DNA of 64,000 bases from Coriobacteriaceae bacterium (GCA_025992855.1 DAJPGB010000001.1:1832421-1896420), one strand, 5' to 3'. Shown: positions 53,154-59,291, counted from the first letter of the stretch. The notes: generated from the sequence alone by a model not told the origin. Numbers and translations: made by a program.

Positions 53154-53447
53154 GGATGAGCGTGGATAATCTCCCACTTTTGCCCAAAGCACAGCCCAAA
53201 AACGGGAGATTATCCACTTTCATTCTGCGGGCACTCATTTAAGTACGTCCCCGATGAGTGGAGCTATTTACCAGCCACGGCAACGCCGATATTTTGGCAA
53301 CGTCAGCGAGCGGGTCGCATTTGAGACAAGGTGCCGTGAAATGAAAGGGCGCTGACCTTCTGGTCGCGCCCTTGAAATTGAACGGCAGATTGTCCAAATG
53401 CGGCCCGCACAGCGTCGGCCGGTCCGCCGTTCGGTAGAACGGCGGAA
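53154..53447. repeat. Family C composite element, intact copy 1
   Basis: Parts in order: a hairpin with inverted TTATCCAC boxes (53162-53217); the linker tcattctgcgggcactcatttaagtacgtccccgatgagt; a three-tier hairpin (53310-53408); and a terminal hairpin ggtccgccgttc-ggta-gaacggcggaacc that abuts the SDR stop. Confidence 0.75.
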
Positions 53448-54539: not shown

Positions 54540-56309
54540 ATGCCTATGACAGACGAGCTGGACCCCCAGACTCAACAGCATATTGATGATTCCGCAGACG
54601 TCACTGCAGATGCCGACGCTGTGACCTGCGATGATATTGACCTCGACGACCCCATCTTGGACGAAAGCGCTACGGCGGAAACCCCCGGCGCCGAAGATGC
54701 CGGCGAGCAAAACGACGATGCGCCCGCTCAGGACGACGACCCCGTACAGGATGCCGCTTCGCAAGCTGCGGGCCCTATCGAGGTTTCTTCGGAAGAAGAG
54801 CTCGACGCCGTCATGGACTCCATGATGGATGCCGTCAAAGCGATGAAAGACGCCGTGGCCGACGCTGACGTTGACGCCGAGGAAGAGGAGGCCGCCGAGG
54901 CAGCCTCGACCTTCGTACCCGGCGAGACTCCGGTTGCCGACCAGGGCAGCGCCATGCCCTCGTTTCTGCAGCTCGAGCATCCCACGATTGGCGCTGATGC
55001 GGTCGACCCGCACGCAGCAGGCTTTTCTGTGGTCGAGGGCGGCACCGGCAATATCGCCGCGCCGCAGGCTACCGATGCGGACGCTGCCGACACCGCTCGC
55101 CCGACCGCCCCGCACTCCCCTGCCGCGAACCGCGATCTGGGGACCGCTGTCTCGAACACCGCGAACGCCGTGGGCACCTTTATCGCCCAGGGCGCCTCGG
55201 CCATGCGCGAGATGAACGCCGCGAAAAAGGCACTTGCCGATGCCCGTGCCCACTTGGCCGAACTTGAGCAGCGCATTGCCGATCAGGCCGAGGAACTCGA
55301 GACGCGCCAGGATATCGCAGGCCGCTACGACCAGATCGTCGCCGACCAGCGCCAGGCGATTGCCACGGCCCAAAAGACTGCAGCGGCCGCCGAGATTGAT
55401 CGTGATGCCCACGCCTCCAAAGCGACAGAGCTCAAGGGTCAGCTCGAACAAATGAAGACAGAGGATGACGCGACTGAGCTCCGTCTGAAGGCCGCGCTCG
55501 ACGCCGTGGAGGCCCGCGAGGCGAGCTCACGCGAGACCGGCAACCGCCTCGTTCGACGTCTTGAGGATTCCAAGCGCATCCGCGACAAGGTGAAGGCAGA
55601 GCGAGACGCCGGCATTGCCGCCGCACAACAAACCGTCGACGCCACGCGCGCCCAGCTCGAGACGCTGCGTCATGAGTATGCCGAGCTGCAACGCAATCCC
55701 TCGGCAAATCCCGCCAACTATACGGTGCGCACCAGCGAGCTCTCGATGCAGATTTCCGACACGGCAGATGCCCTGCGTAAAGCCGAAGAAGATGTCCCGC
55801 GCATCACCGCCGACCTTGAGCACTCGCTTGCCGCAGCCGAGCAGGCCGTCGAGCAGGCTCAAGCCCCTATCGCCGACGCAAAACGCGCGCACCAAGCCGT
55901 GACGACCGAAGCCGATGCCGCGCGCGACGAGCTGCAGACGGCGAAGACAGCCGCCGCGACTCGTCAGCGCGAACTGCGCGAGAAGATCACTGCCGAGGAC
56001 AAGGCACGCCGCGACCAGGAGCAGAGCATCGCCAACGCCCAAGCAGATGCCGCACATGCGCAGTCGATCATCGGACAGGCGACCGAAGTGCACGACCACC
56101 CAGAGATCACTGAGTCGCTTGCAGGATCCTTGGCCCGAGACAAAGCCGAACACGCCGAGACCGAGCGAGAAGTCGCCCAGCTCGAGGCCACCGAGGACGC
56201 GGTGCGCGAACGTACCCGCGACTCACGCATCAAATTCACCGGCGCCATCGTCTGCATCGTCGCCGCAATCCTGGCGATCATCCTAGTCTGGCTGTTCGCA
56301 AGCAAGTAG
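54540..56309 (+). CDS. 589-aa tail-anchored protein: acidic N-terminus, long Ala/Glu/Arg coiled coil, C-terminal TM helix
   Basis: Start MPMTDELD behind a gaggag SD. The C-terminal helix is FTGAIVCIVAAILAIILVWLFA. No enzymatic motif seen. Confidence 0.6.
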   Translation: MPMTDELDPQTQQHIDDSADVTADADAVTCDDIDLDDPILDESATAETPGAEDAGEQNDDAPAQDDDPVQDAASQAAGPIEVSSEEELDAVMDSMMDAVKAMKDAVADADVDAEEEEAAEAASTFVPGETPVADQGSAMPSFLQLEHPTIGADAVDPHAAGFSVVEGGTGNIAAPQATDADAADTARPTAPHSPAANRDLGTAVSNTANAVGTFIAQGASAMREMNAAKKALADARAHLAELEQRIADQAEELETRQDIAGRYDQIVADQRQAIATAQKTAAAAEIDRDAHASKATELKGQLEQMKTEDDATELRLKAALDAVEAREASSRETGNRLVRRLEDSKRIRDKVKAERDAGIAAAQQTVDATRAQLETLRHEYAELQRNPSANPANYTVRTSELSMQISDTADALRKAEEDVPRITADLEHSLAAAEQAVEQAQAPIADAKRAHQAVTTEADAARDELQTAKTAAATRQRELREKITAEDKARRDQEQSIANAQADAAHAQSIIGQATEVHDHPEITESLAGSLARDKAEHAETEREVAQLEATEDAVRERTRDSRIKFTGAIVCIVAAILAIILVWLFASK

Positions 56310-56312
56310 TCA

Positions 56313-56356
56313 TTGGGGACGTTCTTAAACGACTAGTCAAACAAGAACGTCCCCAA
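56313..56356 (+). terminator. hairpin built from inverted Family A cores
   Basis: ttggggacgttctt-aaacgactagtcaaac-aagaacgtccccaa. Begins 4 nt after the stop of the coiled-coil gene. Confidence 0.6.
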
Positions 56357-56365
56357 CGACTAGCC

Positions 56366-56465
56366 CAATGACGAGAGTGGATAATCTCCCACTTTGAGCC
56401 CCCAAGCAGGCCAAAAACGGGAGATTATCCACTCTCATTCTGCAGGCACTCATTTAAGTACGTCC
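56366..56465. repeat. Family C composite element copy 2, left part (interrupted by IS110)
   Basis: gtggataatctccc...gggagattatccac, then tctcattctgcaggcactcatttaagtacgtcc. Colinear with 53154-53250 up to the IS junction. Confidence 0.8.
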
Positions 56466-57896
56466 ATTACAGTCGAAATTGTCAGCCCGGGACCGTCTCG
56501 GGCTACGATTGAGGCGCGCCCAGAACGGGCCGCCGACCGGGCGCCCGCGCACGGCCGAACGTCCCTGCCCCCGAGAGGGCCCGTTGGGTGCTGCCGGCGC
56601 GGGACGCGCCGCCCCCGACGGCTGATAGGAAAGTGCCGGGCAGGCGCCGCGGCTGGTAATGTGAGTGCCGAGGGGGAGGCCATCCGGTCGAACGACTACC
56701 GGAAGGATACCACCGTGAAAGCGCCATCCACCAGGCCCGCGGCCGTGCTCGGCCTGGACGTCGGCAAGTCATCGCACTGGGCCTGCCTGATCGACCGCGA
56801 CGGGGAGGTGCTGGCCAGCGCCCCCGTCCGCAACAGGGAGGCCGAGCTCGACGCGCTGTTCGCCTCCGCGCCCGCCGGCACGCTCGTCGTCGTCGACCAG
56901 TTCCGCAACATAGGGTCCCTCGCCGTGAGGCGGGCCCGCGCCGCGGGGCTCGGGGTCGCCCACCTGCCCGGGCTCGCCGCCAGCCGCGCCGCGGGCCTGT
57001 TCGCCGGCGAGGCCAAGACCGACGAGCGCGACGCCGCGGTGATCGCGCGGACCGCCCTGGGCGTGCCGGACTCCCTGTCGGGGGTCCCGGGCCGCGGCGA
57101 GGCCCTCGAGGCCGCCCGCGCCCTCTCGTCGCAGCGCGACCACGTCGTCGCCTGCGCGACCAGGGACAAGAACCGCCTGCGCGCGGTGCTGCTCGAGTCC
57201 TGCCCGGCCCTCGAGGCCGCGGTCGACCTGTCGGACCGGCGGTGGCTGGAGCTGCTCGCCGGGTTCGGCGGGGCGTGGGGGATCGCCCGCTCCGGGGCCG
57301 GGGGCCCGCGGGCCGAGGCCGCCGGGGAGGCCGCGGCCGCCTCCACCGCGCCCCCGCCTGCGCTCGTCGAGGCCGAGAACAGGCAGGTCAGGTTCCTGGC
57401 CGCCCGGATATCGGAGGCCCTCGACGAGGCCGGGGCCCTCGAGGCCGAGACGGCGGCGCTGCTCGAGGGCGACGAGACCTACGCGTGCCTGCTCACCGTG
57501 CCCGGCATCGGCCCGAGGACCGCGGCGCAGCTCGCGGTGTCGGTCGACATCGGGAGGTTCCCGGACCACGACCACCTGGCCTCGTACTGCGGCATAGCCC
57601 CGAGGGTGAGGAGCTCCGGAACGTCGGTGAGGTCGGTCAGGGCGTCCAGGCGCGGCGACGCGAGGCTCAAGTCCCTGCTGATCTTCTCGTGCAACAGCCT
57701 GGTGAGGTCCTCGGGGCGCTACGGCGAGTACTACCGGGCCTGCAGGGCGCGGGGCATGGGGCACGGGCGGGCGCTCAAGGCCGTCGCGAGGAAGCGGCTC
57801 AGGGCGATATACGGGCTCAGGGCGATATACGCCGTGATGCGCGACCGGGTGCCCTACCGGGAGTAGCCCCGACGGTTGACAAAACTATAGGAACAC
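56466..57896 (+). mobile_element. IS110-family insertion sequence (~1.43 kb, boundaries +/-2 nt)
   Basis: Interrupts repeat C exactly between ...aagtacgtcc and ccaatgagt..., whereas the intact copy reads aagtacgtccccgatgagt. GC is about 75% against ~63% for the host. No terminal inverted repeats, as is usual for IS110. Confidence 0.85.
56715..57866 (+). CDS. IS110 family transposase (DEDD recombinase)
   Basis: GTG start behind ggaagga. N-terminal LGLDVGKSSHWA and C-terminal GIGPRTAAQL...YCGIAPRVRSSG. Contains an in-frame 18-nt tandem duplication (LRAIYG x2) at 57795-57830. Confidence 0.85.
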   Translation: MKAPSTRPAAVLGLDVGKSSHWACLIDRDGEVLASAPVRNREAELDALFASAPAGTLVVVDQFRNIGSLAVRRARAAGLGVAHLPGLAASRAAGLFAGEAKTDERDAAVIARTALGVPDSLSGVPGRGEALEAARALSSQRDHVVACATRDKNRLRAVLLESCPALEAAVDLSDRRWLELLAGFGGAWGIARSGAGGPRAEAAGEAAAASTAPPPALVEAENRQVRFLAARISEALDEAGALEAETAALLEGDETYACLLTVPGIGPRTAAQLAVSVDIGRFPDHDHLASYCGIAPRVRSSGTSVRSVRASRRGDARLKSLLIFSCNSLVRSSGRYGEYYRACRARGMGHGRALKAVARKRLRAIYGLRAIYAVMRDRVPYRE

Positions 57897-58068
57897 CCAA
57901 TGAGTACCTGCCGATGCTTTGGCAAAGTCAGCGAAAACGCCCCTAAGCGAGCAAGGTGACGTGAAAGAGGGGGGGCATTGACCTTCTGGTCATGCCCGAC
58001 GATTGAACATCAGATTGCCGCTTAGGGGGGTTTGCAGCGTCGGCCGGTTACGGCGTTTGTAAAACGCC
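57897..58068. repeat. Family C composite element copy 2, right part
   Basis: ccaatgagtacctgccgatgctttggcaaagtcagcg, then the three-tier hairpin at 57934-58033, then the terminal hairpin ggttacggcgttt-gta-aaacgccgtaacc abutting the queA stop. Confidence 0.8.
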
Positions 58069-58073
58069 GTAAC

Positions 58074-59291
58074 CTACAGAATGAGCATCGCGTCGCCAAA
58101 GCTGAAGAAGCGGTAGCGCTCTTCGATAGCAGCGGCGTAGGCATCCATGATCTGGTCGCGGGTGGCAAGCGCGCTTACGAGCATCATGAGCGTGGAGCGC
58201 GGCACGTGGAAGTTCGTGATCAGCGCGTCGACCACGTGATAGGTCGAGCCGGGCATGAGGTAAAGCTGCGTCGTGGCGTTCTCGCGCGCCACGATGTCGC
58301 CGCGGCCGAGCGTGTCGGCACCGTCCTCGCGGCCTTCAAAATAGCGCGCCGTCACAGCCGGATCGGACACCGGCGCGTCCGCGTCAAACGCACTCTCGAG
58401 CGAGCGCACCGCGGTGGTGCCGACGGCGATCACACGATGACCCTCGGCCTTCGCCTTATGCACGGCGTCGACAACCTCCTGCGACACGTGGTAGCGCTCG
58501 GTGTGCATGACGTGCTGCGTAGGGTCGTCCTCCTCCACCAAGCGGAAGGTATCGATGCCCACCTCGAGCTCGACGGCGGCAAACTTCGCGCCCTTGGCCT
58601 CGATAGCGGCCATGAGCTCGGGAGTAAAGTGCAGACCCGCCGTAGGAGCGGCAGCCGAGTGCTCCTCCTTCATGGCGTAGACGGTCTGGTACTTCTCGGG
58701 GTCGCCCTCGTAATCGGTAATGTAGGGCGGCAGCGGCACGTGGCCGGCCGCATGGATGGCCTCGTCGAGCGTGCGCGGGTCGCCGGCGGCATTGCAACCG
58801 ACCGGCTCAAAGCGCACCAGACGGCCACCACGGCTATCGGTGACAAAGTCGATGACCTCGGCCGTCAGCACCACGGGAGCCCCCTCGGGCGCATGGGCGC
58901 CACCGGCGCGATACTCAATCTGGGCACCGGGCTTCAGGCGCTTGCCCGGCTTGACCAAGCACTCCCAAACATGGCCCAGCGGGTCAACATCCTCGCGGCG
59001 CTTGAGCAGCAGCGTCTCGACCACGCCACCCGAGCCGGCTTTGCGACCGATCAGGCGGGCCGGCATCACACGCGTCTTGTTGATGACGAGCACGTCGCCC
59101 GGCTCGATATAGTCGATGATGTCGCGGAAGATGCAGTGCTCAACGGTGCCGCCATGCTCCAGCGGCGTTCCCGCCTGGGAGCCCTTGCGATCCACCACCA
59201 GCAGGCGGCAGGAGTCGCGCGGCTCGGCGGGAGCCTGGGCGATCAGTTCCTCGGGAAGGTTGTAGTCAAAATCATCGGTACGCATAGACAC
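58074..59291 (-). CDS. queA: S-adenosylmethionine:tRNA ribosyltransferase-isomerase
   Basis: N-terminal FDYNLPEELIAQ signature. 405 aa. Confidence 0.9.
   Translation of the reverse strand: MSMRTDDFDYNLPEELIAQAPAEPRDSCRLLVVDRKGSQAGTPLEHGGTVEHCIFRDIIDYIEPGDVLVINKTRVMPARLIGRKAGSGGVVETLLLKRREDVDPLGHVWECLVKPGKRLKPGAQIEYRAGGAHAPEGAPVVLTAEVIDFVTDSRGGRLVRFEPVGCNAAGDPRTLDEAIHAAGHVPLPPYITDYEGDPEKYQTVYAMKEEHSAAAPTAGLHFTPELMAAIEAKGAKFAAVELEVGIDTFRLVEEDDPTQHVMHTERYHVSQEVVDAVHKAKAEGHRVIAVGTTAVRSLESAFDADAPVSDPAVTARYFEGREDGADTLGRGDIVARENATTQLYLMPGSTYHVVDALITNFHVPRSTLMMLVSALATRDQIMDAYAAAIEERYRFFSFGDAMLIL

Follow-up and report, generated by a model that had tools for sequence, protein, structure and literature searches.

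IS621 of Escherichia coli, an insertion sequence (IS) of the IS110 group, encodes a recombinase with a DEDD motif and a catalytic Ser, has a long left end and a short right end, and inserts without a scar into repeats of the repetitive extragenic palindromic (REP) type (Durrant et al. 2024, PMC11208160; Hiraizumi et al. 2024, PMC11208158). Its sigma-70-like promoter is split, with the -35 half on the right end and the -10 half on the left end. The left-end RNA, the bridge RNA, combines a 5' hairpin with one loop that binds the target and another that binds the donor, and the 3' strand of the target loop continues into bases complementary to the donor end (handshake-type pairing). Here, we describe an IS110-group element at positions 56466-57896 of a 64,000-nt stretch of a Coriobacteriaceae bacterium genome (GCA_025992855.1, DAJPGB010000001.1:1832421-1896420; hereafter, the window). 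Positions are counted from the first base of the window, and features lie on the + strand unless marked otherwise.

In each loop of the IS621 bridge RNA, the 5' strand takes up 8-9 nt of the bottom DNA strand by base pairing, and the 3' strand 4-7 nt of the top strand (PMC11208160). IS621 cuts the top strand 3' of the core, and its left target guide extends 2 nt past the core (PMC11208158). REP-targeting IS110 elements were reported by Tobes and Pareja (2006), as cited in PMC11208160. ISPpu10 of Pseudomonas putida and other REP-targeting IS110 elements (bioRxiv 10.64898/2026.03.19.712850) target many copies of one intergenic hairpin-forming repeat, with the crossover beside or inside the hairpin. 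Elements of the IS1111 group, or seekRNA elements, have the same recombinase family and RNA-guided site choice, and carry their RNA in a long right end together with subterminal inverted repeats.

The window element shares with IS621 the type of recombinase, the long left and short right ends, scarless insertion into REP-type repeats, the predicted split promoter, and a predicted left-end RNA with a 5' hairpin, two loops and a handshake-type continuation. Unlike in IS621, a long-range stem closes both loops; the proteins are distant, aligning in the C-terminal domain alone (E 1e-6), and the second acidic residue in the window clade is Asp, not Glu. The element resembles the ISPpu10 group in targeting many copies of one intergenic hairpin-forming repeat and in having its crossover at the hairpin, and its 249-nt left end and 30-nt right end place it in the IS110 group, not in IS1111. 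Taken together, we consider it about 90% probable that the locus is best explained by a recent, precise insertion into a REP-like repeat of an element whose bridge RNA matches both the target and its own joined ends, and which moves by an IS621-like mechanism.

Insertion into a REP-like repeat

The element splits the host unit that an earlier, sequence-only reading of the window had called repeat C between aagtacgtcc and ccaatgagt, as that reading had it, and an intact copy of the unit, AAGTACGTCCCCGATGAGT, is present at 53241-53259. The left half of the target (56449-56465) reads ACTCATT-TAAGTACGTCC, of which the last 8 nt, GTACGTCC, comprise the left target and the target core CC. The right half (57897-57908) reads CCAATGAGTACC, in which CCAATG is the right target and the partner of the right target guide. 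Seven orthologous loci in genomes of the same genus are empty (...aagtacgtcc followed by CCAATGAGTACC...); in each, the left flank joins the right flank exactly, with nothing duplicated or lost, and one of the seven has a 100% identical flank. The empty sites indicate that the element inserted recently and precisely, without duplication or loss, into the loop of a REP-like hairpin repeat.

The target hairpin has arms TAGTCATT and AATGACTA and a loop reading TAAGAACGTCCCC. The crossover falls within the 13-nt loop, separated by 2 nt from the 3' arm that follows in the 8-bp hairpin, a position that differs from those in the ISPpu10 group. The 14-nt core GAACGTCCCCAAYG recurs without mismatch at 25 places in the genome, and the full unit has several dozen looser matches. 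The element sits in the second copy of a composite repeat of ~300 bp (53154-53400 and 56370-58070) that recurs many times in the genome by BLAST and consists, in order, of a DnaA-box-like hairpin, the REP unit and a structured segment of ~100 nt.

The element is present as a single copy in the 2.31-Mb genome and is made up of a 249-nt non-coding left end, a 383-codon recombinase gene and a 30-nt right end. There are no terminal inverted repeats and no target-site duplication. The empty orthologous sites fix the length at 1431 bp, with one base of ambiguity at the boundary, where the final C of the element meets a C of the target. A scan of a genome collection returned at least 80 loci with proteins 97-98% identical to the recombinase, nearly all labelled Collinsella, and reported several hundred relatives beyond the matches listed. 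The counts within the family given below refer to 78 copies, including that of the window. Among these, 75 full copies from Collinsella genomes start with ATTACAGTCG and finish with ATAGGAACAC. A search for proteins of similar length returned mainly this element, and a group in it of "88-89% identical, 360 aa" proved to represent the same IS with a later gene-call start. Relatives of the window element also occur in several families belonging to one order, that of the host.

Insertions favour the REP-like hairpin unit of the repeat C type (...CCAAYGACTA). Approximately 70 of the 75 full copies lie in a repeat reading ...A(A/G)GAACGTCC/CCAAYGACTA, where the slash marks the insertion point, and 4 of the 78 insertions are in a related, family-A-like unit, GGAA(C/T)GTCC/C(T/C)AACTGCC. 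The sequence-only reading had proposed homing into a type of host repeat and had matched left-end segments to the two halves of the family A unit; programmed targeting of a repeat agrees with these flanks, and the unit that is preferred is not family A. One near-identical copy, on the Collinsella metagenome-assembled contig CAKMWN010000002.1, has the normal right flank CCAATGACTACC and an unrelated left flank (..GTTGCGTTC), which could reflect an off-target insertion or a later rearrangement; the flanks surveyed otherwise sit nearly all at GAACGTCC/CCAAYG.

The window holds seven occurrences of ACGTCCCC. Only two sites in it are perfect for both target guides, at 56311-24 (- strand) and 56345-58 (+ strand), 110-150 bp upstream of the element, and both are unoccupied. 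Approximately four more sites of the repeat type are within 2 mismatches of the target guides, so the figure of more than eight potential sites put forward from sequence alone is approximate. In other strains, contigs run from ...GAACGTCC at 56352 directly into ATTACAGTCGAAATTGTCAG; because the unit is repeated, a contig end at this position may derive from any copy.

Predicted left-end RNA

The left end, 56466-56714, is predicted to encode a bridge RNA with two internal-loop stem-loops supported by covariation. A 5' stem-loop at 56478-56509 (-17.7 kcal/mol, z -3.9) precedes a core at 56531-56693, in which a closing stem (56534-39 with 56685-90) encloses a target-binding and a donor-binding stem-loop. 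In the minimum-energy fold, loop 1 (target) has an outer stem at 56544-55/56593-603 and an inner hairpin at 56567-80, and loop 2 (donor) has an outer stem at 56612-22/56667-76 and an inner hairpin at 56635-53.

Thirty-two diverged relatives were collected from genomes of the same class, their ends were set from multiple copies, and 13 representative left ends were aligned with that of the window. RNAalifold analysis of this alignment returned the same architecture and closing stem, with 48 base pairs, 22 of which show compensatory changes. A covariance model trained only on the 13 relatives, with the window excluded, matched 56531-56693 end to end (93.7 bits, E 7e-15) and matched nothing else in the window or elsewhere in the genome. 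Differences between the window sequence and the model are found mainly where the guides lie. Both the fold and the model are in keeping with the bridge RNA that had been suggested from the sequence.

Guides and their matches

The guide polarity observed here agrees with that described for IS621 in PMC11208160. The left target guide, GAACGUCCCU (56557-56566), forms the 5' side of loop 1 and reads as the target top strand GAACGTCCCC does, its final position being a U-G wobble. The right target guide, CGUUGGG (56582-56588), forms the 3' strand of the loop and pairs with top strand CCCAAYG. The UG that follows it, to 56590, can pair in a handshake-like arrangement with CA in the donor end, CAC. 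In loop 2, the left donor guide AUAGGAA (56625-56631, with AGU to 56634) is the 5' strand and equals the right end ATAGGAA, and the right donor guide GUAAUGUG (56656-56663) is the 3' strand and is complementary over 8 nt to CAC/ATTAC across the expected joint of the two ends. The right donor guide is GUAAUGUG in 12 of 13 relatives; L114 has GUGAUGUG. The site occupied by the window copy, GTACGTCC, has one mismatch to the left target guide, as have the sites of five other copies.

The guide matches exceed chance. When the left end was subjected to 2000 dinucleotide shuffles, a 9-nt identity to the target (left target guide) was reached in 17, a 7-nt identity to the right end (left donor guide) in 77, and an 8-nt complement to the joined ends (right donor guide) in 11. 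All three matches together were reached in none of the 2000.

The guides also vary together with the sequences they are predicted to read. The 3' strand of loop 1 covaries with the right flank: ..UUGGG-UG occurs with CCAAYG in the window family, ..GGGGGG-UG with CCCCC in six lineages, and ..GGGAC-GUG with GTCCC in each of the 8 copies examined. In loop 2, it is the 5' strand that covaries with the right end, AUAGGAA occurring with ATAGGAACAC, AUAGAGA with ATAGAGACAC, and AUGGGAAC with ATGGGAACAC. Within the family, a C56560U change in the left target guide is carried by four copies, two of which are in GAATGTCC sites, compared with 0 of 73 other copies (Fisher p 0.002, a value overstated by kinship). 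A G56583A variant of the right target guide, compared with CCAATG sites, was in the fitting direction in 5/5 cases, which is not significant (p 0.3). In two diverged relatives, L087 and L114, the right end is followed by ATTAC..., the start of a left end, and not by the usual C-run, and a normal C-run is present on the left. The arrangement resembles insertion at a "half-match" site with the right side recognised by the donor guide.

All of the sequence features listed in the sequence-only reading were found where it had placed them (gaacgtccc at 56557-65, ataggaa at 56625-31 and aagtgccggg at 56631-40), and not all of them are guides. The first, read as a target guide, corresponds to the left target guide that varies with the target, and ataggaa, read as a donor guide, to the left donor guide that varies with the right end. 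The segment aagtgccggg had also been taken for a target guide; it is instead the tail of the donor-loop 5' strand plus the donor-loop inner stem, which reads UGCCGGGC in 10 of 13 aligned relatives, with UGCCG invariant, whatever their target. As a right target guide it would in addition have the wrong polarity, since such a guide must be the reverse complement of the target and not identical to it (PMC11208160). The GC-rich hairpin ggcgcg-gga-cgcgcc (56596-56610) belongs largely to the outer stem of the target loop, as its 3' strand paired with 56544-55, and the hairpin is not conserved in relatives.

The donor-loop segment AAGUGCCGG (56631-56640) recurs within the host family-A unit (..CCAAGTGCCGG), and AACUGCCGG of related elements is identical to the other host variant (..CTAACTGCCGG); the right flanks of L030, L047 and L069 were part of this comparison. 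As the segment forms a conserved stem, the identity between the donor loop and family A is probably due to chance, although the coincidence is a double one.

Putative joined-end promoter

The right end carries TTGACA (57876-57881) followed by 15 nt to position 57896, and the left end starts with AT-TACAGT, the hexamer lying at 56468-56473. The joined ends would therefore read TTGACA-17-TACAGT, a putative circle-junction promoter that forms only on joining. The sequence-only reading had predicted this arrangement, and the ends defined from ~75 copies, as well as relatives at 50-67% protein identity, keep its geometry. Among the left ends of the relatives, ATTACAG is invariant and the next T is present in 13 of 14 rows as aligned. 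Relatives with recombinases 50-67% identical keep ATTACAGT, TTGAC(A/G) and the 15-nt distance. This conservation is supportive and not proof, because part of it is also required for donor recognition. In the integrated state, the left flank reads AGGCAC at the position equivalent to the -35 hexamer, which leaves no usable -35, and a scan of the integrated locus with a promoter consensus found no site.

A degenerate 18-nt version of the joint gave 34 matches in metagenome contigs of the Joint Genome Institute (JGI), about the number expected by chance, and all but one were in unrelated contexts. In the exception, L181 (contig Ga0163159_1016585, reverse strand, ~100-130), a right-end-like TTGACAAAACCATAGAAACAC abuts the ATTACAGT... 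of a degenerate relative, whose recombinase is frameshifted and whose own right end differs from the abutting one. A right end and a left end therefore do abut in DNA with the 15-nt geometry, whether through tandem elements or through insertion next to a remnant. In Logan contigs of public runs, the element appears as its own contig of ~1427 bp, also in RNA libraries, although contigs cannot show transcription, transcript starts or circles. The same contigs contained no joint from 57896 back to 56466, a negative that is limited by the inability of contigs to show circles.

Recombinase

The recombinase gene (56715-57866; 383 aa) begins with GTG at 56715, immediately after the 249-nt non-coding left end, as the sequence-only reading had described, and is preceded by the Shine-Dalgarno sequence GGAAGGA; the stop codon is at 57864-66. 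The protein matches the Pfam families DEDD_Tnp_IS110 (PF01548, E 3.7e-33) and Transposase_20 (PF02371, E 5.5e-22). IS621 is the only solved relative. In the alignment with IS621, which is limited to the C-terminal domain, the SG of the window protein aligns with the SG of the IS621 motif that holds the catalytic Ser. The motifs GLDVGK, VVVVDQ, KTDE.DA (KTDERDA in the window) and S-G-T/K-S (SSGTS in the window) are conserved in an alignment with 11 relatives, and the D..D..D..D/S motif positions are kept across the clade, with Asp and not Glu as the second acidic residue throughout.

The window copy differs from the other copies by an in-frame 18-nt tandem duplication (57788-57823; LRAIYG-LRAIYA), which adds 6 aa to the C-terminal helix of the recombinase. 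The duplication is absent from the 77 other copies and from every contig aligned to the window. The other copies are 1412-1413 bp long, except for L064, which measures 1464 bp owing to an N run in its left flank.

Crossover

Empty sites contain four C residues (GTCCCCAA), and the occupied site reads GTCC-ATTACAG ... GGAACAC-CCAA. The donor (A-C/A) and the target (C-C/C) therefore share one C and not a dinucleotide. In every clade member examined, the left flank ends in CC and the right end ends in AC. The 3' strands of both loops end in G-U-G in all relatives, a triplet that complements the donor CAC but not the target. Duplication of an ordinary 2-nt core, with CC on either side, was considered and rejected; the empty site has four C, and the occupied site two on the left and three on the right, including the last base of the element.

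With cores CC (target) and AC (donor), the IS621 geometry reproduces both observed junctions. All 78 copies have junctions of the same types, namely left target, target core and left end on one side, and right end, donor core and right target on the other. Top-strand-only junctions of this kind are the prediction of a single-strand pathway when the cores differ. They would fit the recent reports on CazIS110-1 and on copy-out and top-strand-transfer models (bioRxiv 10.1101/2025.10.25.684509; 10.64898/2026.08.31.748434), a link that we draw from the junction sequences observed here. That the whole clade is a natural bridge system working by single-strand (top-strand) transfer with one-base homology is a tentative suggestion.

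In the mechanism we propose, the element would leave as a circle or as a copied-out strand, and the joint ...GGAACAC/ATTACAG... would create TTGACA-17-TACAGT. The joint promoter would then drive a ~200-nt RNA from the left end, folding into the 5' hairpin and the closing stem around the two internal-loop stem-loops. In the target loop, the 3' strand CGUUGGG would pair with top strand C/CCAAYG, and in the donor loop, the 3' strand GUAAUGUG would pair with top strand CAC/ATTAC of the joint. The DEDD/Ser recombinase would swap strands just 3' of the single C shared by donor A-C and target C-C, and this exchange would yield GTCC-ATTACAG and GGAACAC-CCAATG, the junctions that are observed.

Discussion

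A bridge RNA directing an IS621-like insertion has to be set against several unfavourable observations. Folding energies are ordinary relative to shuffles (z approximately -0.8 over the two loops, -2.4 over the entire left end) in an RNA that is G+C-rich, and an Rfam scan of 55900-58400 with E values up to 10 found no family in the left end, returning elsewhere in that interval chance microRNA and snoRNA matches on neighbouring REP hairpins only. The exact 23-nt circle joint had 0 matches in the JGI metagenome contigs. The last 3 nt before the joint form no canonical pairs with the left donor guide, the core being reached only through G-T and U-G wobbles (AGU), a departure from IS621. Donor and target do not share a core dinucleotide paired by all four guides, the target core being CC and the donor core AC with a difference at the first position, where IS621 has CT in both. 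The circle, transcription, binding of the RNA by the protein and the position of strand cleavage are carried over by analogy with IS621. The element remains a single copy although 25 perfect target sites are free, and the window copy may be weak or dead from the 6-aa C-terminal duplication that no other copy has.

Two other explanations of the locus were weighed. The left end might be mainly a 5' untranslated regulatory region of the recombinase, with the matches arising as by-products of the history of the element and not as guides; the structure does adjoin the Shine-Dalgarno sequence, and the thermodynamic z-scores are weak. We regard this as very improbable, since the matches fall exactly on both strands of both internal loops with the known bridge-RNA polarity, the guides shift with the flanks and ends in three target and three donor classes while the stems stay paired, and a guide variant within the family tracks a target variant. 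It is also possible, but clearly not the favoured view, that a genuine IS110 element with bridge-RNA features is represented here by an inactive relic, through the duplication or lack of expression, so that nothing is functionally "programmed" in this genome. The copy is alone despite 25 perfect and 35 near-perfect free sites, two of them within 150 bp, its 18-nt duplication is unique among the 78 copies, and the integrated state has no promoter-like site. Against an inactive relic, the frame is open, the set of catalytic motifs is intact and the left end equals the family consensus at every guide position; the insertion is recent, the closest genome having an empty site in a 100% identical flank; and IS110 elements are generally low in copy number and rarely excise (PMC13626964).

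A further alternative concerns the crossover alone. The core might be C2C3 of the target and CA of the donor, with cleavage 5' of the core. The left target guide spans GAACGT-CCC(C) and the right CCC-AAYG, so that they overlap on the second and third C, and strand exchange on the opposite side of the shared C would be consistent with the observed junctions too. We think this rather unlikely and favour CC and AC, as IS621 cuts the top strand 3' of the core and these cores with that geometry yield both junctions directly, and as the 3' strands of both loops end in GUG, the complement of donor CAC, in all relatives.

The window element is an IS110-group IS native to Collinsella-type Coriobacteriia that targets REP-type repeats via a predicted bridge RNA. 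It is a new example of a mechanism described in 2024, and the kind of system is already known; a literature search found no paper describing this element. The unequal donor and target cores may be the sole feature that goes beyond the IS621 paradigm. If transfer with one-base homology is true, it would relax the "matching core" rule used in programming IS621, and the clade offers a natural experiment on the degree of core identity that a bridge recombinase requires. The G+C content of the element, 74% compared with 60% for the genome, suggests a past in hosts of higher G+C or strong internal constraints, and the bridge RNA accounts for the presence of such an element among the intergenic repeats of this genome.

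For annotation, the guides predict the landing places of further copies. With its many copies, the family is a clean natural case of bridge-RNA targeting in a genus common in the human gut. Across the clade, the donor ends and the promoter are kept nearly the same, while the target loop has been rewritten at least three times, for C-runs, for ..CCCC/GTCCC and for the REP-like GAACGTCC/CCAAYG, and a single-base guide variant tracks a single-base target variant. The clade thus supplies ready-made orthogonal sets of guides and targets.

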